Source of the DNA: Sporichthyaceae bacterium
Lineage (GTDB): Bacteria; Actinomycetota; Actinomycetes; Sporichthyales; Sporichthyaceae
Reading direction: 5' to 3'
DNA: 24,000 nt
NCBI GenBank assembly: GCA_052387905.1
Contig: JBQTIR010000021.1
Coordinates: forward strand, 64,727-88,726
Below the pieces are notes generated by a model. That model worked only from the letters and a program-made list of their open reading frames with translations. It searched no databases and had not been told where the DNA came from. Positions 1,844 through 17,378 of this stretch are shown one piece after another. How positions within the stretch are numbered: the first letter of the stretch is position 1; each line of letters opens with the position of its first letter. The position numbers and the translations under genes were made by a program.

Positions 1844-1969
1844 ATGGGGCACCCGGACCTGTACGCCGAGGACATCGAGGTCGGAATCGACGCCGCGTTC
1901 GGGAGCTACACCCTGACCGAGGACGAGATCATCGCCTACGCCTCGCAGTGGGACCCGCTGCCGATTCAT
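1844..1969 (+). pseudogene. N-terminal 42-codon remnant of a MaoC-like (hotdog-fold) dehydratase gene
   Basis: LYAEDIEVGIDAAFGSYTLTEDEIIAYASQWDPLPIH matches the N-terminal pattern of MaoC/acyl dehydratase proteins (xYFEDxxVG..G..TvTe.eIi.FA.qfDPqPfH). Similarity stops at 1969, where the hypB stop codon (1969-1971, minus strand) begins. The rest of the 120-aa ORF is antisense to hypB. Confidence 0.6.
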
Positions 1970-2745
1970 CAGGGGAGTACAAGGTCTCGCAGCCAGTGGC
2001 ACCATGCGTCAACACCGGCGCCCGTCCGGGCGCTGACCTCCAAGGTTGCCACCGCCGGATTGATTCTCGTCAGGTTGGCCCGGAACAGCGCCAGATCGAC
2101 GTCCAGGTGTGGCAGCAGGTCGATCTTGTTGATCAGCACGAGGTCGACGGCGCGGAACATCACCGGGTACTTCAGCGGCTTCTCCTCGCCCTCAGTGAGC
2201 GAGTAGACCATGACCCGGGCGTGCTCGCCGACGTCGAATTCGGCGGGGCAAACCAGGTTGCCGACGTTCTCCACGAGCACGAGATCGAGGTCGGTCAGCG
2301 GGAGGCGGGTCAGGGCCGACCGCACCATGGGCGCGTCCAGATGGCACTCGCCTCCGAATCCGTTGCCGGTGTTCACCAGTTCAATGACCGCCCCGAAGCC
2401 GGCGAGGCGGTCGGCGTCGATGCTGGTCTCGATGTCGCCCTCGATCACGCCGATGCGAAACTGCCCCGTCAAGCGCGCCAGGGTCTCGCGCAACAGCGTC
2501 GTCTTGCCGGCACCCGGTGAGGACATCACATTGATCACGACGGCGCCTGCGGCTGCCAGATCTGCCCGGTTGCGTGCTGCTACTCGATCGTTCTCGTCGA
2601 AGATCCGTTCAAGCACGTCGACCCGGTCGGTGGCGGTTCCGTAGCCGGACAGGTCACCGAGGTACTTCCGCTGCGACTCGGTATCGCTGTGGTCCTGTTC
2701 GTGACTGTGCATCACTTTGTCATCATGGTGATGGAATCGGCCCAT
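1969..2745 (-). CDS. hypB: Hydrogenase nickel incorporation GTPase HypB
   Basis: 258 aa. His-rich N-terminus MGRFHHHDDKVMHSHEQDH, P-loop SSPGAGKTTLL, ENVGNLVCP and NKIDL GTPase motifs. RBS GGAAGGG lies upstream. Confidence 0.95.
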   Translation of the reverse strand: MGRFHHHDDKVMHSHEQDHSDTESQRKYLGDLSGYGTATDRVDVLERIFDENDRVAARNRADLAAAGAVVINVMSSPGAGKTTLLRETLARLTGQFRIGVIEGDIETSIDADRLAGFGAVIELVNTGNGFGGECHLDAPMVRSALTRLPLTDLDLVLVENVGNLVCPAEFDVGEHARVMVYSLTEGEEKPLKYPVMFRAVDLVLINKIDLLPHLDVDLALFRANLTRINPAVATLEVSARTGAGVDAWCHWLRDLVLP

Positions 2746-3692: not shown

Positions 3693-4268
3693 TTACTGAG
3701 GGGGTGATCCCGTGGACCTGCCGAGATCGATCGATACCTCGATGCCGATTGCGTCAGAGAGGCGGAGCGCGCCGAGGAAGGCCTTGTAGGGCTTGATGCC
3801 AAAGGCTGACTGCAGAAGGGTTCCAGTGGCACGCCAGGACGAATCTCTGGAGTCGGTCACATCCAACCGCAACCGACCGGACGAGCCATGCAAGGTAAGG
3901 CTTCCCTCAATTTCTCCCGACGAGGCGTCGCCAGAAGGCACCACGCGATCGACGGTGAATATTGCGGTCGGATTCTTGTCGACATCGAGCAACTTCATCG
4001 CCGTCTTGGTGATGTCGGCCTTGTCGCCGGCGTCGAGCGGCGAGGCACCGCCTGTGCCCTCCACAATCGTGAACGAGCCCAGATCGACCTCGGCGGTGAG
4101 CTCGGCTCCCGTGGGGTCCTCGGCGGTCAGGCTCAGCTGCCCGGACCAACGGGGAAACTCGATGAGGAGGTCGTGCCCGACTTTCGCGGCGACGCCCTCC
4201 CGGGTGGTCCGCACTCGGATGTGGCCCACCTCCGGACCGAGGGTGAAGTCGCCGCTTGTGTGCGCCAT
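3693..4268 (-). CDS. YceI-family (lipocalin-like, polyisoprenoid-binding fold) protein, no signal peptide
   Basis: ATG at 4268 is preceded by GGAGATGGAGG. YceI-like blocks are LLDVDKNPTAIFTV, GSLTLHGSSGRLRLDV and FGIKPYKAFLGALRLSDAIGIEVSIDL. The N-terminus MAHTSGDFTLGPE has no hydrophobic leader. Confidence 0.75.
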   Translation of the reverse strand: MAHTSGDFTLGPEVGHIRVRTTREGVAAKVGHDLLIEFPRWSGQLSLTAEDPTGAELTAEVDLGSFTIVEGTGGASPLDAGDKADITKTAMKLLDVDKNPTAIFTVDRVVPSGDASSGEIEGSLTLHGSSGRLRLDVTDSRDSSWRATGTLLQSAFGIKPYKAFLGALRLSDAIGIEVSIDLGRSTGSPPQ

Positions 4269-4554: not shown

Positions 4555-5604
4555 GTGACCACGGCGACAGACGAGGGTGTTGTCCACATTCTCTGGATGA
4601 ACGGGGGCTTGGGTTGTGACGGAGATTCAGTTGCGCTGACCGCAGCCACCCAGCCCAGCATCGAGGAGATCGTGCTGGGGGCCCTGCCGGGCCTGCCGAA
4701 GATCGCGGTGCACTGGCCGCTGATCGACTTCGAATGCGGCCCGGAGACCGGCGCGGACAACTTCATCGAGTGGTGGCACAAGGCCGACCGCGGTGAACTC
4801 GAACCGTTCGTTCTCGTGGTGGAGGGCTCGATCCCCAACGAGGAGTTGAACGCCGGCAACGGTGGGTATTTCTGCGGCTTCGGCAACGACCCCGCGACGA
4901 ACCAGCCGCGCACCACCAACGAGTGGCTGGACCGGCTCTCCGCCAAGGCGACCGCGATCATCGCCGTGGGCACCTGCGCCACCTACGGCGGCATCCACGG
5001 GATGGCCGGCAACCCGACCGGCGCCATGGGCGTGCCCGACTACCTTGGCTGGGACTGGAAGTCCAAGGCCGGGCTGCCCATCGTGTGCGTGCCGGGCTGC
5101 CCGATCCACCCGGACAACCTCTCCGAGACCATCACCTACCTGCTCTACCAGGTCGCCGGCCAGGCCCCGATGATCCCGCTGGACACCGAGCTGCGCCCGA
5201 AGTGGCTGTTCGAGTCCACCGTGCACGAGGGTTGCGATCGCGGCGGGTACTACGAGCAGGGCCAGTTCGCCACCGAGTACGGCTCCCCGCTGTGCCTGGT
5301 CAAGCTCGGCTGCTGGGGCCCGGTGGTCAACTGCAACGTCCCCAAACGCGGCTGGATCAACGGCATCGGTGGTTGCCCGAACGTCGGCGGCATCTGCATC
5401 GGCTGCACCATGCCGGGCTTCCCGGACAAGTTCATGCCGTTCATGGACGAACCCCCCGGCAGCAAGGTGTCGGCCACCGCAAGCTCGGCTTACGGCGTGG
5501 TGATCCGAACCATGCGCAAGTTCACGATGAACACCCTGAACAAAGAACCCTCCTGGCGTGAGCGCGGACCCATGCTCAAGACCGGCTATACGAAGGTGAA
5601 GTGA
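4555..5604 (+). CDS. hhyS: [NiFe]-hydrogenase small subunit, group 1h/5 type (no Tat signal)
   Basis: GTG start lies 9 nt after GGAGG. N-terminus is VHILWMNGGLGCDGDSV with no RRxF twin-arginine leader. Fe-S ligand blocks are GTCATYGG, VPGCPIHPD and CLVKLGCWGP..NCN..GGCPN.GGICIGCTMPGFPD. Confidence 0.93.
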   Translation: MTTATDEGVVHILWMNGGLGCDGDSVALTAATQPSIEEIVLGALPGLPKIAVHWPLIDFECGPETGADNFIEWWHKADRGELEPFVLVVEGSIPNEELNAGNGGYFCGFGNDPATNQPRTTNEWLDRLSAKATAIIAVGTCATYGGIHGMAGNPTGAMGVPDYLGWDWKSKAGLPIVCVPGCPIHPDNLSETITYLLYQVAGQAPMIPLDTELRPKWLFESTVHEGCDRGGYYEQGQFATEYGSPLCLVKLGCWGPVVNCNVPKRGWINGIGGCPNVGGICIGCTMPGFPDKFMPFMDEPPGSKVSATASSAYGVVIRTMRKFTMNTLNKEPSWRERGPMLKTGYTKVK

Positions 5605-5611
5605 CTCGGCG

Positions 5612-7414
5612 ATGACCACCACCTCGACGAAGTACCTGTCCACGAAGGGCGCCGACGAGTCCCACCTGACCGAGATGGCCTGGGACCCGATCACTCGCAT
5701 CGTCGGCAGCCTGGGGATCTACACGAAGATCGACTTCAAGCAGAAGGTCGTCGCGGAGTGCTACAGCACGTCCTCGATATTCCGCGGGTACAGCATCTTC
5801 ATGAAGGGCAAGGACCCGCGCGACGCGCACTTCATTACCAGCCGGATCTGCGGGATCTGCGGGGACAACCACGCCACATGTTCGGTCTACAACCAGAACA
5901 TGGCATACGGCGTGCATCCGCCGGCGCTCGGTGAATGGCTGATCAACCTCGGTGAGGCCGCCGAGTACATGTTTGACCACAACATCTTCCAGGAGAACCT
6001 GGTCGGGGTCGACTACTGCGAAAAGATGGTCCGCGAGACCAACCCCGGCGTCCTGGAACTGGCCAACCGCACCGAGGCCCCGCACGCCGGCGAACACGGG
6101 TACAAGTTCATCGGCGACATCATGCGCGCGCTCAACCCGCTCGAGGGCGAGTTCTACCGCGAGGCGCTGGCCGTCTCCCGCTACACCCGGGAGATGTTCT
6201 GCCTGATGGAGGGTCGGCACGTCCACCCGTCCACGCTGTACCCGGGCGGCATCGGGACCACCCCGACCATCCAGCTGATGACGGACTACATGACGCGGCT
6301 GATGCGTTACGTCGAGTTCATGAAGCGGGTCGTCCCGTTGCACGACGACCTCTTCGACTTCTTCTACGAAGCCCTGCCCGGGTACGAGAACGTTGGGCTG
6401 CGCCGCACCCAGCTGGTCTGCTGGGGTGCGCTGAACGACCCGCGTCACTGCGACTTCAGGTACGAGAACATGACCAACTGGGGCCGCAAGGCCTTCGTCA
6501 GCCCCGGGGTCGTCGTCGACGGCAAGCTGGTCACCAACGATCTCGTCGAGATCAACCTCGGCATCCGCATCCTGCTCGGCTCCTCTTTCTACAAGAGCTG
6601 GGAAGACCAGCCGATGTTCGTCACCAAGGACGCACTCGGCAACACCGTCGACCGCAATCACCCGTGGAACCAGACCACGCTGCCCGACCCGCAGAAGCGC
6701 GACTTCGACGACAAGTACAGCTGGGTGATGTCCCCGCGCTGGTTCGACGGCAAGGACCACCTCGCCTGCGACACCGGCGGTGGGCCGCTCGCCCGGCTGT
6801 GGGCCACGGCGCTCGGCGGGCTGGTCGACTGCGGGTACGTCAAGGCGACCGGGACTTCCGTCGTGATCAACCTGCCCAAGACGATGCTCAAGCCCGGGGT
6901 GACCTTCGAGTGGAAGGTCCCGAAGTGGAGCAACACCCTCGAACGCAACCGTGCCCGCACCTACTTCCAGGCCTACGCCGCGGCCTGCGCGCTGTACTTC
7001 TGCGAGCAGGCACTCGAAGAGATCCGCGCCGGCAACACCAAGACGTGGAACTCCTTCGAGGTGCCGGACGAGGCGTTCAGCTGCGGGTTCACCGAGGCCG
7101 TGCGCGGGGTGCTCAGCCACCACATGGTCATCAAGGGCGGCAAGATCGCGAACTACCACCCCTACCCGCCGACGCCGTGGAACGCCAGCGTGCGTGATGT
7201 CTATGGCACGCCGGGACCTTACGAGGATGCCGTGCAGAACACCCCGATTTTCGAGGAGAACCCCCCCGACAACTTCAAGGGCATCGACATCATGCGAGCG
7301 GTGCGCAGCTTCGACCCGTGCCTGCCGTGTGGCGTGCACATGTACCTCGGCCCAGGTAAGACGATCCAGACCATCCACAACCCGGCGATGATGCCCACGA
7401 CGCTGGCGACCTGA
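5612..7414 (+). CDS. hhyL: [NiFe]-hydrogenase large subunit, group 1h/5 type
   Basis: 600 aa. N-terminal active-site motif is TSRICGICGDNHA. C-terminal motif SFDPCLPCGVHM is followed by a 23-aa extension that would be removed by the endopeptidase. Confidence 0.97.
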   Translation: MTTTSTKYLSTKGADESHLTEMAWDPITRIVGSLGIYTKIDFKQKVVAECYSTSSIFRGYSIFMKGKDPRDAHFITSRICGICGDNHATCSVYNQNMAYGVHPPALGEWLINLGEAAEYMFDHNIFQENLVGVDYCEKMVRETNPGVLELANRTEAPHAGEHGYKFIGDIMRALNPLEGEFYREALAVSRYTREMFCLMEGRHVHPSTLYPGGIGTTPTIQLMTDYMTRLMRYVEFMKRVVPLHDDLFDFFYEALPGYENVGLRRTQLVCWGALNDPRHCDFRYENMTNWGRKAFVSPGVVVDGKLVTNDLVEINLGIRILLGSSFYKSWEDQPMFVTKDALGNTVDRNHPWNQTTLPDPQKRDFDDKYSWVMSPRWFDGKDHLACDTGGGPLARLWATALGGLVDCGYVKATGTSVVINLPKTMLKPGVTFEWKVPKWSNTLERNRARTYFQAYAAACALYFCEQALEEIRAGNTKTWNSFEVPDEAFSCGFTEAVRGVLSHHMVIKGGKIANYHPYPPTPWNASVRDVYGTPGPYEDAVQNTPIFEENPPDNFKGIDIMRAVRSFDPCLPCGVHMYLGPGKTIQTIHNPAMMPTTLAT

Positions 7415-7416
7415 CG

Positions 7417-7932
7417 ATGGGCGCTCCCAAGCTCGACGTGGGCGAGCGGGTCGAGGCCCTGCTCGCGCAGCTGCGCCGCCAGGGTGGTGACCCGGCGGCC
7501 GACAGCGGCGAGGAACTCGTCCGGGAGCTGCTCGCCTACTACGGCGCCGGGTTGGAGCGCATCACCGAGATCGTCGCGGCCGGTGCCCCCGAACTGTTGG
7601 CGGCACTGGCCGCGGACCCCCTGGTGGAAAGCCAGCTGCTGCTGCACGGGGTGCACCCGCTGGGTGTGGAGGAGCGGATCACCGCCGCGCTCGACGCGCT
7701 CGTACCGCCGGCAGGTGACGCTGTCTATCTCGGCATCGACGTCGACGGCGTCGCACACCTACGCCTGCCCGGCACCGGCAAGGGCTGCTCGACCGGTGCC
7801 GCGAAGGCGGTCCTCGCCGAGACGCTGCTGGCCGCGGCTCCGGAACTCACCGACGTGGAGGTGGCGACCGAGGAAACGGCCAAACCGCTGATCCAGATCG
7901 GCAGGCGTCCCGGCCTGGTGGCAGTGAGATGA
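7417..7932 (+). CDS. NifU/Nfu C-terminal-domain-like protein of the hydrogenase cluster (single Cys)
   Basis: Starts 2 nt after the hhyL stop. The C-terminal half VEERITAALDALVPP.GDAVYLGIDVDGVAHLRLPGTGKGCSTGAAKAVLAETLL follows the Nfu-domain pattern, but CxxC is reduced to a single Cys. Confidence 0.6.
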   Translation: MGAPKLDVGERVEALLAQLRRQGGDPAADSGEELVRELLAYYGAGLERITEIVAAGAPELLAALAADPLVESQLLLHGVHPLGVEERITAALDALVPPAGDAVYLGIDVDGVAHLRLPGTGKGCSTGAAKAVLAETLLAAAPELTDVEVATEETAKPLIQIGRRPGLVAVR

Positions 7933-8606
7933 GTGGCGCCGGCGGTCTGCGCCGGTTCGTGGCTCGGCCCGAACCGGCGCTGCCGTTCGCCACGAATGGG
8001 CGGCCCCGCCCGCGCGGCGAGGGCTGCGAGATGTGCAACGAGATCATCGGTGCCGAGCATCCGCACGTCGTCAACGTCATCACGCGCTCCCTGTTGTGCA
8101 CCTGTCGGCCGTGCTACCTGCTCTTCACCCAGGCCGGTGCGGGACGAGGGACCTACCGCTCGGTCCCGGACCGTTACCTGGCCGATGACGGCGTCGCGCT
8201 GACCGAATCGCAGTGGGACGACCTGCAGGTCCCGGTGGCGATGGCATTCTTCTTCCACAACTGCGCGCAGGACCGGGTCGTGGCGCAGTACCCCAGCCCG
8301 GCCGGCGCCACCGAGTCCTTGCTGGACCTGGCCGCCTGGGACCGGATCGTCGCCGAGAACTCGCTGGCCGCAGCGTTGGAGTCCGACGTCGAGGCCCTGA
8401 TCGTGCACCGCACGCGGGAGGGCGATCGGGACGTCATGCACAGCTACCTGGTGCCGATCGACGCCTGCTACGAACTCGTCGGGCGGGTGCGCCTGCACTG
8501 GACCGGGTTCGACGGCGGAGCCGAGGCGCGTGCCGACATCGGTGAGTTCTTTGCCCGGGTGCGTGCGCGCAGCCGCGTGCTGGTCCACGAGGCATCCCGT
8601 GGCTGA
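7929..8606 (+). CDS. Conserved hydrogenase-cluster protein of unknown function with N-terminal Cys cluster (from memory, the family labelled DUF5947)
   Basis: ATGA overlap with the upstream gene and high GC3. Motif is CEMCNEIIGAEHPH-x-CTCRPCY. No recognisable enzymatic domain. Confidence 0.65.
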   Translation: MSGAGGLRRFVARPEPALPFATNGRPRPRGEGCEMCNEIIGAEHPHVVNVITRSLLCTCRPCYLLFTQAGAGRGTYRSVPDRYLADDGVALTESQWDDLQVPVAMAFFFHNCAQDRVVAQYPSPAGATESLLDLAAWDRIVAENSLAAALESDVEALIVHRTREGDRDVMHSYLVPIDACYELVGRVRLHWTGFDGGAEARADIGEFFARVRARSRVLVHEASRG

Positions 8607-9249
8607 CGTGGTCTTCGACTGTGTTGATGTGCGTTCGGACCGATACGCAGCGGGACCCACGCTGAACTTCCGGCTGCGGATCGCTGAGCTCACCGGCGAG
8701 CGGGTGCATGCCCTAGCGCTGCGGGTGCAGCTGCGCATCGAGCCAGCCAAGCGGCGGTACCTGCCGGGTGAGGTCGCCCGGCTCAATGACCTGTTCGGTG
8801 ACCAGACGCGCTGGGCCGACACCCTCAAACCGTTGCAGCTGGCGAACGCCTCGGTCATGGTGCCGAGCTTCACCAACAACGTCGATATCGAGATGCCGAT
8901 CGCGTTCACCTACGACCTCGATGTCGCCTCCACGAGCTACTTTCGCGCACTGGAGTCCGGTGACATCCCGTTGCTGTTGCTGTTCAGCGGGACCTTGATC
9001 ACCAAGGGGACCACCGGCTTCAGCGTCACCCAGGTCCCCTGGAGCTGCGAGGCCACCTACGCGCTGCCGGTCACCGAGTGGCGCCTGATGATGGATCAGT
9101 TCTTCCCGAACAGCGGATGGGTCCGCCTGAGCCGGCAGACCCTGGACGCCCTGGGGGCGTTCAAGAACTCGCGTGCGCTGCCGAGCTGGGAACACGCTAT
9201 CGATGCCTTGCTCGCGGAGGCCGCCCGGCCGGTGGAGCTCGGCACATGA
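8599..9249 (+). CDS. Conserved hydrogenase-cluster protein of unknown function (from memory, the family labelled DUF6084)
   Basis: GTG 8599 overlaps the upstream stop (GTGGCTGA); GTG 8608 is an alternative. High GC3. The N-terminal part of the 239-aa track ORF overlaps the previous gene and is rejected. Confidence 0.65.
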   Translation: MADVVFDCVDVRSDRYAAGPTLNFRLRIAELTGERVHALALRVQLRIEPAKRRYLPGEVARLNDLFGDQTRWADTLKPLQLANASVMVPSFTNNVDIEMPIAFTYDLDVASTSYFRALESGDIPLLLLFSGTLITKGTTGFSVTQVPWSCEATYALPVTEWRLMMDQFFPNSGWVRLSRQTLDALGAFKNSRALPSWEHAIDALLAEAARPVELGT

Positions 9250-10562
9250 ACGGCCCCTTCGCGATGGCACGCCAGGTCGCCGACACTGTGCTGTACGAGG
9301 GCTACGTGCTCTACCCGTACCGGGCCTCCTCGGCGAAGAACCAGACGCGCTGGCAGTTCGGGGTACTCATGCCACCGGCCTACGTGGCGATCAATGACTC
9401 CGAGCGTTCGGCCTGTCAGAGCGAGCTGGTGTGCGAACCGAAGCCCGATGCCGTGCTGAGCGTGCAGGTGCGCTTCCTGCACGTCGCCCATCGCACCGGC
9501 GGTGAGCTGCCCGAGTGGGACGAGACCGTCGAGCGGGAACTGGAGTTCGACGTCCACGTCAGCGAGGTGCTGGGGGCACCGCATGAACACCACTTCGCCT
9601 ATGCCGGCGGCGTCACCCTCGCCGACGGGGTGCGGCGGGTGACCGAGCCGGTCAGTGGTGCCGTCGTCGTGGAACTGACGCCGTTGCCCGGTCCGATCGG
9701 GGCGAAACGTCTGCGGGTCCGGGTGGAGAACCGGACCCCGGACCTGGGCAGGACGCCGCCAGGTTCGCGGGACGGCGCCATGGCCTCGGCGCTGGTGGCC
9801 GCCCACACCATGTTCGCTCTCGACCGCGGTTGCTTCGTGTCGATGACTGACCCGCCGGAATGGGCACGGCCCGAGGTGAGCGCCTGCGAGAACATCGGGA
9901 CCTGGCCCGTGCTGGTGGACGCCGCGGACGATGCCGTCGTGCTCTCGTCCCCGATCATTCTCGGGGACCACCCCGAGATCGCCCCGGAGAGCCCCGGTGA
10001 CCTCTATGACGCCACCGAGATCGACGAGATCCTCACGCTGCGCACGATGGTGCTCACTGATGAGGAGAAGGCCGAGGCCCGGGCGACCGACCCGCGGGCC
10101 GCGGCCCTGATCGACCGCGTGGACGAGCTGCCACCCGAGCACCTGGACCGCCTGCATGGCGCCCTGCGCTACCTGCGTCAGGTCACCGGGGCACCGGTTG
10201 AACCTGCTGAACCGCAGACGTTCATGACGCCACTGACACCCTGGTGGGACCCGGGCGCGGACTCCTCGGTATCGCCGGAGACCGACGCGATCGTCATCGA
10301 CGGTGTGCGGGTGGCGCGCGGCAGCCGGGTCCGATTGCGTCCCGGGTTGCGTCGCACCGACGCGCAGGATGTGTTTCTGCGTGGCCGCACCGCCACAGTG
10401 GAGGCGGTGCTCTTCGACGTCGACGGCGCCCAGCATCTGGGGGTCACCCCCGACGACGACCCGGAACTGGCCGAGGTGACGCGCTGGCACGGGCGCTATC
10501 TGTACTTCGCCCCTGACGAGGTCGAACCGGTGGCCACCACCACCAAGCAGGTGTCGTCATGA
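9246..10562 (+). CDS. 438-aa conserved hypothetical protein of the hydrogenase cluster
   Basis: ATG 9246 overlaps the upstream stop (ATGA). N-terminus is MNGPFAMARQVADTVLYEGYVLYPYR. High GC3 throughout, with no cofactor or TM motifs seen. Confidence 0.7.
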   Translation: MNGPFAMARQVADTVLYEGYVLYPYRASSAKNQTRWQFGVLMPPAYVAINDSERSACQSELVCEPKPDAVLSVQVRFLHVAHRTGGELPEWDETVERELEFDVHVSEVLGAPHEHHFAYAGGVTLADGVRRVTEPVSGAVVVELTPLPGPIGAKRLRVRVENRTPDLGRTPPGSRDGAMASALVAAHTMFALDRGCFVSMTDPPEWARPEVSACENIGTWPVLVDAADDAVVLSSPIILGDHPEIAPESPGDLYDATEIDEILTLRTMVLTDEEKAEARATDPRAAALIDRVDELPPEHLDRLHGALRYLRQVTGAPVEPAEPQTFMTPLTPWWDPGADSSVSPETDAIVIDGVRVARGSRVRLRPGLRRTDAQDVFLRGRTATVEAVLFDVDGAQHLGVTPDDDPELAEVTRWHGRYLYFAPDEVEPVATTTKQVSS

Positions 10563-11095
10563 CCGCAAGGATGCTGGTCGCCGGGGTCGGCAACATTTTC
10601 CTGAGCGACGACGCCTTTGGGGTTGAGGTCGTGAGCCGGCTCGCCCCCGCGCCGCGCCCGCCGGGTGTCGACCTGCTCGATGTCGGTATCCGCGGCATCC
10701 ACCTCGCCTACCAACTGCTCGACGGCTACGACACCCTCGTCCTCGTCGACACCGCGGCACGCGGGCAGCGGCCCGGCACGCTCACCCTGCTCGAGGTCGA
10801 TCAGGGGCAGATCGAGGCCGAGTTCCAGGAGGTCGGTAGGGCCGAGATCGCTACTGGGCAGGCGCCGATGTTGGACGCCCATGGCCTCGAGCCCGGCGCC
10901 CTGCTGCGCATGCTCGGGTCCCTCGGGGGAGCGGTGGGCAAGGTGCTCGTGGTCGCCTGTGAGCCCGAAAGTCTGGCCGAAGGCATCGGACTGAGCCCGG
11001 TGGTAGCTGCAGCGGTCGAGCCCGCGGTGGCGCTGGTCGGCGAGGTCATGAACTCATTCGCTTCGACACTCATCGCAGAGGAGGTGTCCCGATGA
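10559..11095 (+). CDS. [NiFe]-hydrogenase maturation endopeptidase (HupD/HyaD/HybD family)
   Basis: ATGA overlap with the upstream gene. Family blocks are MLVAGVGNIFLSDDAFGVEVV, TLVLVD and DAHGLEP. Confidence 0.9.
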   Translation: MTARMLVAGVGNIFLSDDAFGVEVVSRLAPAPRPPGVDLLDVGIRGIHLAYQLLDGYDTLVLVDTAARGQRPGTLTLLEVDQGQIEAEFQEVGRAEIATGQAPMLDAHGLEPGALLRMLGSLGGAVGKVLVVACEPESLAEGIGLSPVVAAAVEPAVALVGEVMNSFASTLIAEEVSR

Positions 11096-11196
11096 TCGTG
11101 AGGTTCGTCAAGGCGGCAATGCTCGCGGCAACCGTCGCCGCGGTCCTGCAATCGCTGCCCGACATCAAGCGCTACCTGGACATGCGAGCAATGTGA
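11092..11196 (+). CDS. 34-aa hydrophobic micro-protein (MIVRFVKAAMLAATVAAVLQSLPDIKRYLDMRAM), not in the supplied ORF track
   Basis: ATG overlaps the protease stop (ATGA at 11092-11095), continuing the chain of coupled genes. By hand count, about 28 of 33 codons end in G or C. The following 74 nt have low GC3 in the frame read. It has one hydrophobic helix plus a basic tail. Confidence 0.55.
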   Translation: MIVRFVKAAMLAATVAAVLQSLPDIKRYLDMRAM

Positions 11197-11270: not shown

Positions 11271-11465
11271 ATGGAGACCCTGGTCGGCTTCGGCGTCGGG
11301 TTCCTGGTCGGCACCAAGGAGGGCAAGGAGGGGTTAGCCAAGATCCGCGAATCGTTGGCGGCGATCCGCTCCTCCGCCGAGGTTCAGAGGCTCGTCGGGG
11401 AGGCGTTGGCCGTTCTCGTGCCGATCATGAAGGAGGTCGCCCGAGCGTCGGGCGGCCGCGCCTAG
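11271..11465 (+). CDS. 64-aa small protein with glycine-zipper N-terminus (YtxH-like flavour), unknown function
   Basis: ATG is preceded by GAGGAGAGG. Sequence is METLVGFGVGFLVGTKEGKEGLAKIRESL... with high GC3. The upstream part of the 90-aa track ORF (from GTG 11193) is rich in A/T-ending codons and is rejected. Confidence 0.55.
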   Translation: METLVGFGVGFLVGTKEGKEGLAKIRESLAAIRSSAEVQRLVGEALAVLVPIMKEVARASGGRA

Positions 11466-11474
11466 GTCGTCCCC

Positions 11475-13826
11475 GTGACGGATCGCCCGGCATCGTGTTC
11501 AACCCGTCGACGAGATCGAATCGTGGTCGCGGGCGTCGTGCAGGGCGTCGGCTTTCGGCCGTTCGTCTACGCACTCGCACGTGAACTCGCCTTGGCCGGC
11601 ACCGTGGGAAACACCGGCTCCGGCGTGGTGATCGAGGTTGAGGGTGCGCCGAACGATCTCGCCGCCTTCGCGGCGCGGGTACGCCGCGACGCGCCACCAC
11701 TGGCGAGGGTGGAGAGCGTCGACGCCGAGCCGATACCGACCCTGGGCGGCACCGAGTTCACGATCGTGGACTCGTGCGGCGGCACCGGCCGCACGCTGAT
11801 CTCCCCGGACGTGGCTACCTGTGATGCCTGTCTGGCAGAGCTGGCCGATCCGCACGACCGGCGTTTCCGGCACCCGTTCATCAGCTGTACGAACTGCGGT
11901 CCACGCTTCACCGTGATCGTGGATCTGCCCTATGACCGTCCGGCGACGACGATGGCCGATCTGCCGCTGTGCGGTCGGTGTGCGGCCGAGTACGCCGACC
12001 CGTCAGATCGGCGCTTCCACGCCCAGACCGTGGCCTGCCCGCAATGCGGACCGACGCTGACGCTGTCCCGCTCGGCCGAACCGGACCGCCGTGGGAACCA
12101 GGCCCTGGCCGAGGCCCGCCGGATGCTGGCGGATGGCGCGGTCGTCGCGGTCAAGGGCCTGGGCGGCTACCACCTAGCCTGCGACGCCACCAACCCCGAA
12201 GCCGTCGCCACACTGCGCAAGCGCAAGGATCGCGGCGACAAGCCGTTCGCCGTCGTGGTGACAGACCTTGCCGGCGCCGGCGCCCTGGCCGAGGTATCAC
12301 CTGCCGAGGGTGACCTGCTCAGCGACCACCGTCGCCCGGTCGTGCTGCTGCAACGGCGCGCTGAGCCCGACCTGGTGCTGGCGTCGTCGGTGGCGCCCGG
12401 GTGTCCTGACGTCGGGGTCATGCTGGCCTACACCCCCGTGCATCACCTGCTCCTGGGTCTGCCGGGTGACCCGGCCGGGCCGGGCGTCCTCGTGCTGACG
12501 AGCGGAAACGTGGCCGGAGAACCAATCGTCACCGATGACGGCGTGGCCCGCGAGCGCCTGGCCCCTCTCGCTGACGCGTGGCTCTGGCACGACCGGCCCA
12601 TCCATGTTCCGTGCGATGACTCTGTGGTCCGGATCGCCGGCGGCGCGCAACTCCCGGTGCGGCGATCGCGGGGGTATGCACCGCTGCCGATCGCGCTGCC
12701 GGTCCCGGTCCGCCCGGCGCTCGCCGTGGGCGGCGACCTGAAGAACACCTTCTGCCTCGCCGAGGGCCGCTACGCCTGGCTGTCCGCGCATGTCGGAGAC
12801 ATGGACGATCTGGCCACCCTGACCGCTTTCGAGGCAGCCACCGCGCAGCTGCGCTCGGTCACCCGGGTCAACCCCGAGGTGGTCGTCGCCGACCGGCATC
12901 CCGGTTACCGCAGCGCCGCGTGGGCGCGCCGCAATCGCGATCACCTGCCGGTGCATGCGGTGCAGCATCACCACGCGCACATCGCCTCGGCAATGGCGGA
13001 GAACGGACACTCCGGCGTGCGCCGGGTGATCGGATTCGCCTTCGACGGCACCGGCTACGGCGATGACGGCGCGTCCTGGGGAGGTGAGGTTCTGCTCGCC
13101 GACTACGCCGGATACGACCGGGCCGCACACCTCCGTTACGTCGCACTGCCCGGTGGCGACGCCGGGGTGCGCAACCCCTGCCGGATGGCACTCTCACACC
13201 TGCATTCCGCCGGCATCGGATGGGACCCCCGGTTGCCGTGCGTGGCCGCCTGTACGGAGGCCGAGCGCCGGATCCTGGCCCGTCAGCTCGAGACCGCCCT
13301 GGCCTGCACTCCGACCTCCAGCATGGGCAGGCTCTTTGACGCGGTGTCCTCCCTGGCCGGGGTGTGTCACCGGGCGGCGTATGAGGCCGAAGCAGCGATG
13401 CGGTTCGAGGGGCTCGCCCGCCACGCGATCGCCCAACCCGGCCCGTGCTACGCCTTCGGACCTGGGCTCGATCCCGGTCCGGTGATTTCCGCCGCGGCTG
13501 CGGACGTGCTGGCCGGGATCCCGGCGTCGGTGATCGCCGCGCGGTTCCACCGCGCCGTCGCGGACCTGGTCATCGAGACGGCGCGGGGGCTGCGCGAACG
13601 CACGGGGCTGGATGAGGTCGCGCTCTCCGGTGGGGTCTTCCTCAACGCCCTGCTCACCGTGCTGTGTGTCGACGGCCTCACCCGCGCCGGCTTCCGCGTC
13701 CTGCGCCACCGCTTGGTCCCACCCAGCGACGCCGGGCTCGCGCTGGGCCAGCTGATGATCGCCGCCCGAATCAGCACGATCCCTGCAAGTGCCGACCCCG
13801 TGAGGGAGACCTCGTCATGTGCCTAG
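11475..13826 (+). CDS. hypF: Carbamoyltransferase HypF
   Basis: 783 aa. It has an acylphosphatase motif VQGVGFRPFV and two Zn-finger pairs (CDAC...CTNCGPRFT; CGRC...CPQCGPTL). It also has the YrdC-like KGLGGYHLACDA and a Kae1-like C-terminal half. Confidence 0.95.
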   Translation: MTDRPASCSTRRRDRIVVAGVVQGVGFRPFVYALARELALAGTVGNTGSGVVIEVEGAPNDLAAFAARVRRDAPPLARVESVDAEPIPTLGGTEFTIVDSCGGTGRTLISPDVATCDACLAELADPHDRRFRHPFISCTNCGPRFTVIVDLPYDRPATTMADLPLCGRCAAEYADPSDRRFHAQTVACPQCGPTLTLSRSAEPDRRGNQALAEARRMLADGAVVAVKGLGGYHLACDATNPEAVATLRKRKDRGDKPFAVVVTDLAGAGALAEVSPAEGDLLSDHRRPVVLLQRRAEPDLVLASSVAPGCPDVGVMLAYTPVHHLLLGLPGDPAGPGVLVLTSGNVAGEPIVTDDGVARERLAPLADAWLWHDRPIHVPCDDSVVRIAGGAQLPVRRSRGYAPLPIALPVPVRPALAVGGDLKNTFCLAEGRYAWLSAHVGDMDDLATLTAFEAATAQLRSVTRVNPEVVVADRHPGYRSAAWARRNRDHLPVHAVQHHHAHIASAMAENGHSGVRRVIGFAFDGTGYGDDGASWGGEVLLADYAGYDRAAHLRYVALPGGDAGVRNPCRMALSHLHSAGIGWDPRLPCVAACTEAERRILARQLETALACTPTSSMGRLFDAVSSLAGVCHRAAYEAEAAMRFEGLARHAIAQPGPCYAFGPGLDPGPVISAAAADVLAGIPASVIAARFHRAVADLVIETARGLRERTGLDEVALSGGVFLNALLTVLCVDGLTRAGFRVLRHRLVPPSDAGLALGQLMIAARISTIPASADPVRETSSCA

Positions 13827-14146
13827 CCGTGCCCGGCAAGTTGGAAGAGATCTGGGAGAAGGACGGGACCCGGATGGCCACCGTGAACTTCGGCGGGGTC
13901 CGCAAGGAGATCTGCCTGGAGTTCGTTCCCGAGATCCAGGTCGGGGACTACACGATCGTGCACGTCGGCTTCGCCCTGCAGCGCCTGGACGAGGCCTCCG
14001 CGCTGGAGACGCTCGCGCTGTTCAAGCGGATGGGCGAGATCGAGATGGAGTTCGGCGATCCGTGGGCCCGTGCGGCAGCTGAGTCGGGCGCGCCCGTGCC
14101 GGAGACGAACTGGGCGCAGGACGCGGGCTGGGAAACCAAGTCATGA
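13817..14146 (+). CDS. hypC: Hydrogenase assembly chaperone HypC/HupF, with ~30-aa C-terminal extension
   Basis: The internal ATG gives the canonical MCLAVPGK N-terminus. It overlaps the hypF end by 10 nt. Confidence 0.9.
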
Positions 14147-14156
14147 GGAGCAGGCC

Positions 14157-15281
14157 ATGAAGTACGTCGAGGAGTTCAACGATCCCGAACTCGCCCAGCG
14201 GCTGGTCGAGGACATCCACGCGACCGCGACCCGGCAGTGGTCGATCATGGAGGTCTGCGGTGGCCAGACGCACTCGATCATCCGGCACGGCATCGATCAG
14301 CTGATCGGCGAACAGGTGGAGATGATCCACGGGCCGGGCTGTCCGGTGTGCGTGACTCCGCTGGAGCTGATCGACCAGGCGCTGGCGATCGCGTCGCGAC
14401 CGGGGGTCATCTTCTGCTCGTTCGGGGACATGCTGCGCGTGCCCGGCAGTGATGCGGACCTGTTCCGGATCAAGAGCGCCGGCGGTGACGTCCGGGTGGT
14501 GTACTCGCCGCTGGACGCGCTGAAGATCGCCCGGGAGAACCCCGACCGCGAGGTCGTGTTCTTCGGCATCGGATTCGAAACCACTGCCCCCCCGAATGCC
14601 ATGACGGTGTATCAGGCCGCGCGCCTCGGCGTGCACAACTTCTCGATGCTCGTCTCGCATGTGCTGGTCCCGCCGGCGATCGAGGCCATCATGAGCGCAC
14701 CGAACTGCCGGGTGCAGGGGTTTCTCGGGGCCGGACACGTGTGCAGCGTGATGGGCACCGGCGAGTACCCGCCGCTGGTGGCGCAGTACCAGGTTCCGTT
14801 GGTTGTCACCGGTTTCGAACCACTGGACATCCTGGAGGGCATCCGGCGCACGGTGCACCAGCTCGAGGAAGGCCGGGCAGAGCTGGAGAATGCCTACGGT
14901 CGCGTCGTCCAGACCGAGGGCAACCCGGCGGCCCGCGCATTGCTGGCGGACGTCTTCGAGGTCACCGACCGTGCCTGGCGTGGGATCGGCATGATCCCCA
15001 ACAGCGGCTGGCGCCTGGCGCCTAAGTACCGGGCCTTCGATGCCGAGCACCGGTTCTCCGTGGGCGACATCCACACCGAGGAATCCGCGGACTGCCGCAG
15101 CGGCGACGTCCTGCAGGGCTTCATCAAGCCGCATGAGTGTGCGGCCTTCGGCACTCTGTGCACGCCACGCAATCCGCTCGGCGCGACGATGGTCTCCAGT
15201 GAGGGTGCCTGCGCGGCGTATTACCTCTATCGCCGCTTGGATACCCCGGTAATCCGCGAGGCGGTGAACACCGTTGTCTGA
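14157..15281 (+). CDS. hypD: Hydrogenase formation protein HypD
   Basis: ATG lies after GAGGAGCAGG. Motifs are [20 protein letters not shown] and GIGFETTAP. Confidence 0.95.
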
Positions 15282-16356
15282 CGCAGAGTCAGTGCTGGCT
15301 GCACTGGACTTCGAGGGCTGGAGCTGCCCACTGCCGTTGCGGGACAGCCCCGCTGTCGTGATGGGCCACGGCGGCGGCGGGCAACTCTCTGCCGAGTTGG
15401 TCGAGCACTTGTTCATGCCGGCCTTCCGCGGCGGGGACGGTTCGGTGGCCGATCTCGGTGATTCAGCCGTGGTGAGCCTGGGCGGCGCCCGGATCGCGTT
15501 CTCCACCGATACCTACGTGGTGCGGCCGTTGTTCTTCCCTGGTGGTTCGATCGGCGATCTGGCCGTCAACGGCACGGTCAATGATCTGGCGATGAGCGGT
15601 GCGGTCCCGGCATACCTGTCCTGTGGCTTCGTGCTGGAGGAGGGAACGGACCTGGCGGTGGTCGGGCGGATCGCCCACGACCTGGGCGCGGCGGCGCGCG
15701 CCGCCGGGGTCCGGGTCGTCACCGGCGACACCAAGGTCGTGGATGCCGGGCACGGCGATGGCGTGTATCTCAACACCGCCGGCATCGGCGCGGTGCCCGA
15801 CGGTGTCGACATCCGGCCCGATCGGGCCTGCGTCGGAGATGTGATCATCGTCAGCGGCGACATCGGCGTGCACGGCATTGCGATCATGAGTGTGCGGGAG
15901 GGCCTGGAGTTCGGCACCCAGATCGTCTCGGACTGCGCGGCCCTGCACCCCCTGGTCGCGGCAATGCTCGACGTCACCCGGGACCTGCATGTCCTGCGCG
16001 ATCCGACCCGGGGCGGGCTGGCCACCTCGCTGAACGAGATCGCCGCCGCCTCCCGGGTGGGTGTGCGGATCATCGAGCGCTCTGTCCCGGTTCCACCTGA
16101 CGTCGCCGGAGCCTGCGCGTTGCTCGGCCTCGATCCGCTTTACGTCGCCAACGAAGGCAAGCTGGTGGCCTTCGTCCCACGGGAGCACGCCGAGGAGGTG
16201 CTCGCGGTGATGCGTGCGCACCCCCTCGGTGCGGACGCGGCGGTGATCGGTGAGTGCGTCGACGCACATCACGGGATGGTCGTGGCCACCACGACCTTCG
16301 GTGCGACCCGGGTCGTGGATATCCCCTTGGGTGAGCAGTTGCCGCGGATCTGCTGA
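15274..16356 (+). CDS. hypE: Hydrogenase expression/formation protein HypE
   Basis: HGGGGQ N-terminal motif, AIR-synthase-like fold blocks and the C-terminal PRIC. The TTG start overlaps the hypD stop by 8 nt; GTG 15292 is an alternative. Confidence 0.92.
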
Positions 16357-16445
16357 CCGCCGTGGTGCCGCTGCTACTCTCACCCCGGACCGTTCAGCCA
16401 TCCCCTTGTGCGGGCGGTGAGAGATCTGTCGGCGGCGCGTTCTAG

Positions 16446-16840
16446 GGTCGCGCCGAGAGCCGGTCCGGAACCCCCAACGAGGACGACACCTTTTCCTGGA
16501 ATGAGGCGGTGGTGTCCTCCGACGTCGAGCGGCCAAGGCCTTCCACGGCGAGGTCTTCGGGTCGTCGATGCCGATGGGCACCTACTGGGTGATCCAGGGC
16601 GGAGAGCACGGTGGGCTCGGCGGACTCATGGCGCGGCCGCCGGAGTTGCCGACCGGGACGCGCGACCACTGGGGCGTCTACTTCACTGTCGCCGATCTGG
16701 ATCGCAAGATCGGGGAGGTCACGGTCGGTGGCGGATCGCTGTTGTTCGGACCGGACGCGGTCGAGGGAGTGGGTCGCTTCGCCACGGTGGCCGATCCGCA
16801 GGGCGGCGCGTTCCAGATCATCCAGCCCCCGGCCGGCTGA
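16446..16840 (+). pseudogene. VOC/glyoxalase-family gene, frameshifted and lacking a start codon
   Basis: Frame 3 (16446-16532) reads ...TPNEDDTFSWNEAVVSSDVER. Frame 2 continues AKAFHGEVFG..MPMGTYWVIQ...HWGVYFTVADLD...GVGRFATVADPQGGAFQIIQ. One base appears to be missing near 16530-16533 (gagcggccaagg). No ATG/GTG/TTG lies between the TAG at 16443 and the FSWNE block. Confidence 0.6.
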
Positions 16841-16889
16841 TCGCGCCGTTCGCCGACCAGTGGCCCCGGCACTGGGGTAGGAAGGGCGG

Positions 16890-17378
16890 GTGACTGATTC
16901 CGGGTACGAACGCTCCGAGACGACGGCGCAGCGGCTGGACCGGAACTGGGTGGAGCTGCTGCAGGAAGTCCGGGTCGTACAGACTGGCGTCCAGCTCCTC
17001 ACCGGATTTCTGCTCATCCTGCCGTTCCAGGAGCGGTTTTCCCGGCTCAGTGACGCCTCGACGGCGCTCTACCTCGTCGCGGTCTGCCTTGCTGCGGCGT
17101 CAACCGCCTGTCTGATCGCGCCGGTCGCGAGCCACCGCATCCTGTTCCGCCACGGCGCGCGGACGCAGCTGGTCGCCTCGGCGCAGCGGTTCGCGTTGGC
17201 CGGCCTTGCCCTGTTGGGACTCGCGATCATCGCGGTCCTCATGCTGACGTTCGGGATCGTCGTGGGGCGGACGTGGGGCATTGTGGCGGGCGGGGTGGCG
17301 CTGGCGGTTTTCAGCGTGGCCTGGCTGGCACTACCGCTCCTGATGCGTCGACGCCTGGGGACATTGAAGGCCGGTTGA
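16890..17378 (+). CDS. Membrane protein, DUF6328-like
   Basis: GTG start. The N-terminal ETTAQRLDRNWVELLQEVRVVQTGVQLLTGFLL signature is followed by 3-4 hydrophobic helices. Confidence 0.7.
   Translation: MTDSGYERSETTAQRLDRNWVELLQEVRVVQTGVQLLTGFLLILPFQERFSRLSDASTALYLVAVCLAAASTACLIAPVASHRILFRHGARTQLVASAQRFALAGLALLGLAIIAVLMLTFGIVVGRTWGIVAGGVALAVFSVAWLALPLLMRRRLGTLKAG

Follow-up and report, generated by a model that had tools for sequence, protein, structure and literature searches.

A conserved gene block between hhyL and the maturation protease gene of an actinobacterial group 1h [NiFe]-hydrogenase operon, and its possible role in enzyme assembly

Results

Gene content of the locus

The window analysed here, a stretch of 24,000 nucleotides from the metagenome-assembled genome (MAG) of a Sporichthyaceae bacterium (assembly GCA_052387905.1, contig JBQTIR010000021.1, forward-strand positions 64,727 to 88,726), carries the operon of a group 1h ('actinobacterial', Hhy/AH) [NiFe]-hydrogenase. 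Our subject is the block of four genes, o171, o225, o216 and o438, that lies between the large-subunit gene hhyL and the maturation protease gene hupD. Pfam and NCBIfam searches gave the plus-strand order hhyS, hhyL, o171, o225, o216, o438, hupD, p34, a small open reading frame (ORF) named o90, hypF, hypC, hypD and hypE, while Pfam placed hypB, hypA and a YceI-like gene on the minus strand (Table 1). The genes from hhyS through hypE are transcribed as one operon, and a scan for promoters and terminators inside it returned nothing beyond chance. The L1 motif (TSRICGICGDNH) and the L2 motif (SFDPCLPCGVH) read in HhyL equal the group 1h signature as quoted in PMC5364354. HhyS begins directly in its conserved domain, without a twin-arginine translocation (Tat) leader and without a transmembrane (TM) helix. 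The original prediction had stated that group 1h enzymes lack a cytochrome b or membrane anchor, and Pfam scans of all window ORFs agreed with it, no cytochrome b being found.

Table 1. Features of the hydrogenase locus (window coordinates; Met, methionine; aa, amino acids)
Feature	Position	Strand	Product	Family match (E-value; score against cut-off)
hypB	1969-2745	-	nickel insertion	PF02492
hypA	2784 to about 3134	-	nickel insertion	PF01155
YceI-like gene	3693-4268	-	lipocalin, probably 191 aa from an internal Met; divergent from hhyS	PF04264
hhyS	4555-5604	+	small subunit, 349 aa	PF14720, PF01058
hhyL	5612-7414	+	large subunit, 600 aa	PF00374
o171	7417-7932	+	HhyE-like protein, short form, 171 aa	
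o225	7929-8606	+	DUF5947 protein, 225 aa	PF19372 (2e-70; 236.4 bits against 25)
o216	8599-9249	+	DUF6084 protein, 216 aa	PF19562 (2e-84; 282.8 bits against 25), match 1-210 (full-length)
o438	9246-10562	+	unnamed family, 438 aa	
hupD	10559-11095	+	HycI/HyaD-type maturation endopeptidase, 178 aa	PF01750; TIGR00072 (3e-33; 114.8 bits against 47.45)
p34	11092-11196	+	DUF6893 peptide, 34 aa	PF21833 (41.6 bits against 24.6)
o90	11271-11465	+	small protein, probably 64 aa from an internal Met	
hypF	11475-13826	+		Pfam
hypC	13817-14146	+		Pfam
hypD	to 15281	+		Pfam
hypE	15274-16356	+		Pfam

Gene junctions and their conservation

Every junction, ORF length and coordinate given in the original prediction held when read directly. 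The hhyL stop codon (TGA, 7412-7414) is separated from the start codon of o171 (ATG, 7417) by the two nucleotides cg (7415-7416). ATGA overlaps follow at 7929-7932, 9246-9249, 10559-10562 and 11092-11095, and o225 and o216 share the 8 nt GTGGCTGA (8599-8606). The start of o216 is backed by the DUF6084 model, which matches from residue 1 of the 216-aa form, and by an overlap of -8 annotated at the same junction of plasmid pHG1 of Cupriavidus necator H16 (Ralstonia eutropha); that of o438 is backed by homologue alignments beginning at about residue 5. Homology argued against the longer starts that are possible for o216 (at 8530) and o438 (at 9078), and these were discarded. The same prediction described an unbroken coupled chain from hhyL to the protease. 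These genes are real and tightly coupled, but the chain does not end there: it runs on through hupD and hypFCDE, with a 10-nt overlap of hypF and hypC, an overlap of hypD and hypE, and hypC and hypD either overlapping or 10 nt apart. Since a chain of this kind includes the Hyp enzymes and chaperones, it gives no ground for the further claim of a stoichiometric tie between the block proteins and the structural subunits.

Junctions were then compared in two sets of loci, taking as start the in-frame start codon nearest the upstream stop: 80 genome loci fetched with HhyL, and 120 loci from metagenome contigs of 40-75% GC, sampled by a degenerate DNA pattern for the L2 motif so as to avoid bias towards close relatives. 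A 4-nt overlap was modal in the genome set (o171 to o225, 70/79; o216 to o438, 57/75; o438 to hupD, 50/59), whose loci are mostly from Streptomyces and so not independent. For the metagenome set, the o216 to o438 junction was -4 in 37/49 cases and within 12 nt in all of them, and the o225 to o216 junction was either -4 (20/59) or -8 (23/59). At the two upstream junctions of this set, hhyL overlapped o171 in only 25% of loci, which again speaks against a stoichiometric tie, and hhyS and hhyL rarely overlapped (median +19.5 nt). The tight junctions that are conserved are thus those inside the block and to hupD, and the tightly coupled unit is the block together with the protease, not the block together with the structural genes.

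Four-nucleotide overlaps are common in actinobacterial operons, so that those of the block might be ascribed to incidental compaction of a high-GC genome with no functional tie to the hydrogenase. However, gene order, gene presence and the 8-nt overlap are kept across Actinomycetota, Beta- and Alphaproteobacteria and across the 40-75% GC range of the contigs; the 8-nt DUF5947/DUF6084 overlap of the window is found in a beta- and an alphaproteobacterium (L081, 8339-8346; L082, 8351-8358). The overlaps exceed chance, since the same junctions recur in other loci. The conservation data effectively refute incidental compaction, which we regard as extremely improbable.

Occurrence of the block beside hhyL

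The original prediction expected the block to be co-conserved with hhySL, and the survey bore this out. The order hhyS-hhyL-o171-o225-o216-o438 was essentially invariant among the 80 genome loci. In the motif-sampled metagenome set, where presence was counted only if enough sequence lay downstream of hhyL, o171 was present in 96/100 assessable loci, DUF5947 in 61/64, DUF6084 in 49/54, o438 in 33/35 and hupD in 29/32, that is in 91-97% depending on the gene. A few loci depart from the pattern. The whole block is missing beside hhyL in L113 and L152, DUF5947 and DUF6084 are both missing from L119, which keeps o171, o438 and hupD, and DUF6084 alone is missing from L115, which keeps DUF5947. The group 1h locus of Methylacidiphilum reads hhyS-hhyL-hupD, and its enzyme is membrane-associated and of high affinity.

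The six-gene block is annotated in the same order on three plasmids, of C. necator (pHG1), Methylocystis parvus and Mycobacterium intracellulare. On pHG1, PHG064-PHG070 encode in identical order the small subunit, the large subunit, a 'NifU family' protein (PHG066), DUF5947 (PHG067), DUF6084 (PHG068), a hypothetical protein (PHG069) and the protease (PHG070), with junctions of -1, -4, -8, -4 and -4 that are nearly identical to those of the window, and an unannotated DUF6893 ORF comes after the protease. The two loci differ in that their proteins are only 25-40% identical, that pHG1 has a gene with a SIS domain between hypC and hypD, and that its hypAB genes lie downstream. Such a SIS-domain gene stands beside hypD in proteobacterial loci (L081, 13936-14625; L082, 926-1615), in Methylocystis between hypF and hypD; the window has none. 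The four ORFs may also be likened by position, though not name by name, to the 'conserved hypothetical' genes hhaABC of Thermomicrobium roseum (trd_1876-1874), which lie directly downstream of hhyLS and are co-induced in starvation; in Methylacidiphilum the name hha is used for hyp-type genes. The window block is therefore a further instance of a known, widely conserved and biochemically uncharacterised gene block. The description of these genes as being of unknown function stands insofar as no biochemical activity has been demonstrated for them, but the block had already been recognised (HhyE, hhaABC, PHG066-069) and one of its members, HhyE, is genetically required.

Much of the atmospheric H2 taken up by soils is attributed to group 1h hydrogenases. 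The block bears on two questions: how an enzyme of two cytoplasmic subunits is put together in air, and by what route its electrons reach the respiratory chain. Being nearly universal beside hhyL, the block encodes obvious candidates for both.

o438 and its link to the protease

The product of o438 is identical (100%) to ACT4P1_09930 of the Sporichthyaceae MAG. It had no match in Pfam, NCBIfam or the Protein Data Bank (PDB), although its family is large, with 3844 clusters at 50% identity. An invariant N-terminal motif, VLYEGYxLYPYR..KNQxRWQFGV, characterises the family, and H187, C214 and H304 are nearly invariant. An AlphaFold2 (AF2) model of medium confidence (predicted local distance difference test, pLDDT, 69) contained a confident beta-sandwich (about 40-235), an acidic segment (236-310) that was modelled poorly and is sequence-invariant, and a C-terminal domain (348-428) folded as an SH3-like barrel. 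This last domain was matched by Foldseek to PetP (7r0w_V, 2n5u; probability 1.0); nothing else in the model was matched in the PDB.

Of ten unusually long family members, seven carry a C-terminal HycI/HupD domain. These o438::HupD fusions, real or apparent, are P0033 (L203, 1859-3832), P0254, P0258, P0296, P0311, P0269 and P0344, the first in a locus otherwise identical to the window. The SH3-like C-terminal domain of o438 alone is fused in frame to HupD in L088 (4 to about 560, minus strand), and in L075 o438 adjoins hupD-hypCDE, away from hhyL.

The likely target of HupD is also conserved. HhyL extends beyond PCGVH by a 24-aa tail, MYLGPGKTIQTIHNPAMMPTTLAT (residues 577-600, window 7343-7414), which is presumed to be the protease substrate. 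The motif MY[LV]GxG[KR]...HxP in the tail is kept across 201 loci, and such strong conservation is consistent with a dedicated recognition. The only PDB relative of HhyL is HofG (5aa5_C, entry 5AA5), whose chain stops at the equivalent of His576, just before the tail. Across group 1h large subunits the tails measure 19-29 aa and the first 16 residues are strongly conserved (MY[LV]GxG[KR]xxxxxHxP[TM]), also in loci that lack the accessory block.

o171, a short HhyE-like protein

The o171 protein itself gave no Pfam match above threshold. It belongs, as judged from its homologues, to the HhyE family, because the profile built from them (A4) matches Nfu domains (2z51, E 7e-21) and most of them match PF01106 (15/20 members; PF00355 is matched by seven long forms). 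An N-terminal helical domain, with D67, LHxLHP (77-81) and R87 conserved throughout the family, is followed by a degenerate Nfu domain. There GTGKGC replaces GSCxGC, leaving the single cysteine of the whole protein, and two small deletions are present. The chain ends at residue 171 and so lacks the C-terminal Rieske-like domain with two CxxC motifs. Long HhyE forms, of 280-325 aa, combine the Nfu CxGC with this domain, which Pfam assigns to the Rieske fold; truncated forms had already been noted in PMC6883350. Among the metagenome homologues (n=96), 47 were short without CxxC, 32 were long and 15 were short with CxxC, and neither PHG066 nor the Methylocystis homologue has a cysteine at the Nfu motif. 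The second match of profile A4 is the second domain of plant CnfU (2z51), itself a degenerate Nfu domain that has lost CxxC and plays a structural role; in CnfU it sits beside an intact Nfu domain of the same chain, whereas o171 has only the degenerate one.

Genetic work in Mycobacterium smegmatis showed that Hhy activity depends on HhyE (Islam et al. 2019, PMC6883350). The window protein occupies the same slot directly after hhyL and is of the same family, and the homologue on the Mycobacterium plasmid is annotated as a 'NifU family protein' of 301 aa. HhyE and HucE of M. smegmatis are putative iron-sulfur (Fe-S) proteins. The window protein differs from them: it has one cysteine left in its Nfu motif and no Rieske-fold domain with the two CxxC motifs, so that the Fe-S function predicted for them does not carry over to it. 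As about half of the homologues have no CxxC, an Fe-S relay cannot be the role of the family as a whole, and not every HhyE homologue should be called an iron-sulfur protein.

DUF5947 and DUF6084

The N-terminal part of the DUF5947 protein carries a knuckle-type metal motif, C33xxC36-x7-H44xH46-x10-C57xC59xxC62, ahead of a C-terminal alpha/beta domain. The metagenome homologues (63/63) all retain the seven residues C33, C36, H44, H46, C57, C59 and C62, and the same motif is conserved in family alignment A2. The AF2 model (pLDDT 82.7, predicted template modelling score, pTM, 0.79) found no credible fold in a Foldseek search of the PDB (best E 0.025, probability 0.13), the non-significant matches being scattered and including Rieske oxygenases. 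A permissive Pfam scan of 32 family members returned no sub-threshold Rieske, rubredoxin or ferredoxin match. Profile-profile comparison gave no hidden paralogy with HypA or with o438, and a weak similarity of the DUF5947 N-terminus to the HhyE C-terminal domain (E 0.01, probability 4%). Conservation analysis of DUF6084 pointed to R52, Y54, F66-G67, F129-x-G131 and several tryptophans and disclosed no metal motif; its profile-profile comparison with o438 gave no hidden paralogy either.

Judged by its position, the DUF5947 gene corresponds to MSMEG_2717 and PHG067. From its motif, DUF5947 is a possible redox or metal partner, and it is the only block protein that still lends itself to the idea of an electron acceptor.

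Absence from the solved enzyme

Sequence and profile searches of the PDB found no homologue of the o171, DUF5947, DUF6084 or o438 families in the only solved group 1h enzyme (HofKG, 5AA5), and PDB profile searches with the o438, DUF5947 and DUF6084 families gave no match at all. The C. necator enzyme, as purified and crystallised for 5AA5, contains only HofK and HofG.

Discussion

Assembly or electron transfer

We infer the biochemical roles of all block proteins from the data above. With moderate confidence, we propose that the four larger proteins together make up a module for assembly and maturation that is specific to this isoenzyme, rather than stoichiometric electron-transfer subunits of the finished enzyme. 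The o438::HupD fusions, the relocation of o438 with hupD in L075, the loss of the Nfu CxxC and the absence from the PDB point to maturation over electron transfer. The most conserved overlaps, o216 to o438 and o438 to hupD, and the extension of the chain into hypFCDE count for the same link, and the observation that Hhy forms a low-molecular-weight active band counts against a role as subunits. In the structure of the related Huc enzyme, HucSLM reduces menaquinone directly and HucE, the HhyE paralogue, is never mentioned (Grinter et al. 2023, PMC10017518).

Such a module would act on the HhyS and HhyL precursors together with the HupD endopeptidase. The o438 protein may be a protease-coupled chaperone, whose SH3-like C-terminal domain would dock HupD, the 24-aa HhyL tail, or both, until the Ni-Fe site is complete. 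With its five cysteines and two histidines, DUF5947 would bind a metal centre, a rubredoxin-like knuckle holding either Zn or Fe-S and perhaps accompanied by another His/Cys site; the purpose of the centre could be redox protection in air or the delivery of cofactors. DUF6084 might be the partner of DUF5947, and the HhyE-like protein a non-redox scaffold acting through its helical domain (D67, LHxLHP, R87).

Several observations weigh against this proposal. The seven invariant Cys/His residues of DUF5947 would suit a redox-active cluster. On native gels HhyE runs together with HhyLS, and Hhy activity is lost when HhyE is deleted, which the authors read as electron transfer (PMC6883350); these genetics suit maturation equally well. 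A passage of the same paper cites PHG067 as the proposed electron acceptor of the C. necator enzyme. Searches detected no similarity of the block proteins to known maturation factors in fold or sequence, and the o438 model reached only medium confidence. Finally, the o438::HupD fusions can be explained in part as frameshift artefacts at the 4-nt overlap in metagenome assemblies, because the linkers in the fusions have about the length of the ends in the unfused proteins. The architecture of L088 and the relocation in L075 are independent of this caveat.

The first alternative, already raised by the original prediction as respiratory coupling, is that the block supplies the missing electron-transfer subunits and that electrons would flow from the distal cluster of HhyS to a DUF5947 cluster, with the Rieske-like domain of long HhyE forms, and on to menaquinone. 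Besides the DUF5947 ligands and the HhyE and PHG067 data, this reading can draw on the lack of a cytochrome b in group 1h enzymes, on the CxxC-bearing Nfu and Rieske-fold domains of long HhyE, on the weak profile similarity between its C-terminal domain and DUF5947, and on the non-significant Foldseek matches to Rieske oxygenases. However, the ligands are missing in the HhyE-like protein of the window and in about half of its homologues. No Pfam or NCBIfam match to a haem b, quinone-binding or ferredoxin-type Fe-S domain was obtained for o171, o225, o216 or o438, and these four proteins show neither a TM helix nor any recognisable quinone site, p34 providing the only hydrophobic helix. No block protein is present in the solved enzyme, and the block follows the protease in its fusions, relocation and junctions, not the structural genes. 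Moreover, hhyL occurs without DUF5947 and DUF6084 in L119 and without the block beside it in L113 and L152, and the short Methylacidiphilum locus nevertheless belongs to a membrane-associated, high-affinity enzyme. Of the coupling proposal, the DUF5947 motif is what persists, and we regard an electron-transfer role of the block as doubtful.

A second alternative is a division within the block. Here o171 and o438 would act with HupD in maturation, and the DUF5947-DUF6084 pair would remain bound to the mature enzyme and serve it in redox reactions or in protection from O2. Locus L119 lost precisely this pair and kept o171, o438 and hupD; the DUF5947/DUF6084 junction has its own conserved -8/-4 geometry; universal metal ligands are confined to DUF5947, and fusion to HupD to o438. 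L115 nevertheless keeps DUF5947 without DUF6084, and neither protein has a PDB homologue. We consider this division rather unlikely.

An assembly role would have a counterpart in the group 1d membrane-bound hydrogenases, which possess isoenzyme-specific maturation genes (HoxL, O, Q, R, T, V / HyaE, HyaF). Assembly in air depends on these genes, and one of their products is a rubredoxin-type CxxC protein. In both cases a set of non-Hyp accessory genes stands between structural genes, protease and hyp genes. The likeness does not extend to the proteins, as Pfam, NCBIfam and Foldseek detected no sequence or fold similarity to the block. Group 1h enzymes have no Tat signal, and the Tat-proofreading roles of the group 1d genes therefore do not apply to them.

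Small genes and the membrane

Immediately after hupD, p34 encodes a DUF6893 micro-protein consisting of a single hydrophobic helix and an invariant tail, PD[ILV][KR]RYLx[ILM]RxM-stop. A TM-like helix, with a Kyte-Doolittle value of at least 1.6 over 17 residues, was found in 93% of members. DUF6893 occurred in 75/82 of the genome loci and, among metagenome loci that could be assessed, in 20/31, always adjoining hupD or o438, and also on pHG1, the Methylocystis plasmid and the Mycobacterium plasmid (positions elsewhere: L081, about 10990-11094; L204, 8335-8454; L082, 10627-10836). No coding sequence (CDS) for it appeared in the gene tables obtained for pHG1 and for the plasmid of M. intracellulare, and the literature searched made no mention of DUF5947, DUF6084 or DUF6893. 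DUF6893 is thus near-universal in group 1h loci, often unannotated, and its sequence resembles a membrane helix. In L112, L122, L130 and L131 it takes a longer form, in which there are two hydrophobic segments.

The YceI-like lipocalin, which lacks a signal peptide, is encoded again in 20 genome and 8 metagenome loci, where its gene lies either divergently upstream of hhyS or just behind that of the p34-like peptide; copies are found for example in L122, L130, L131, L074 and L052, sometimes in tandem. Because YceI lipocalins bind octaprenyl compounds and ubiquinone-8 (PMC9113575), it is by analogy a possible candidate for a menaquinone carrier. The small protein o90 has a Gly-zipper-like hydrophobic N-terminus (LVGFGVGFLVG) followed by amphipathic helices and matched no Pfam family. 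It occurs in 18 genome loci, always directly 3' of p34, and in a few metagenome loci, and in L203 a 64-aa gene is called at its place.

We hypothesise that DUF6893 and the YceI-like protein are more plausible membrane or quinone partners than the large ORFs. The corresponding third alternative is that the small operon genes, not the four large ORFs, link the group 1h enzyme to the membrane and menaquinone: DUF6893, spread from Actinomycetota to Proteobacteria, would be the tether, its tail (PD.[KR]RYL.[ILM]R.M) being taken as cytoplasmic, in many lineages the YceI-like protein would hand over menaquinone, and DUF5947 would be a possible relay. We judge this hypothesis improbable. A parallel is offered by HucM of the group 2a enzyme Huc (PMC10017518), a hydrogenase that likewise has neither TM helices nor a cytochrome b, is associated with the membrane and reduces menaquinone. 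It differs in that no HucM-like gene was recognised at the window, where the candidates are the 34-aa TM peptide and the YceI-like lipocalin.

The genes of the locus can accordingly be sorted into three groups, the candidate protease-linked assembly factors (o438 and the HhyE-like protein), the universally metal-binding DUF5947, and the possible membrane or quinone partners (DUF6893 and the YceI-like protein). This sorting offers a testable division of roles and draws attention to an overlooked micro-protein; it can guide deletions, pull-downs and annotation fixes.

Further observations

An ORF of 161 aa 3' of hypE (16408-16893) is probably no gene and was rejected because its translation is Arg/Gly-rich and apparently out of frame; it is followed by a DUF6328 gene (16890-17378). 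Three RefSeq-derived plasmid records label the group 1h small subunit 'hydrogenase expression protein HypE' (L081, 4205-5260; L082, 4296-5375; L204, 1933-2988), an apparent systematic misannotation. On the M. intracellulare plasmid, a nuoA-G operon for NADH-quinone oxidoreductase starts about 700 nt past hhy-hupD-hypC (L204, 9944-15320).

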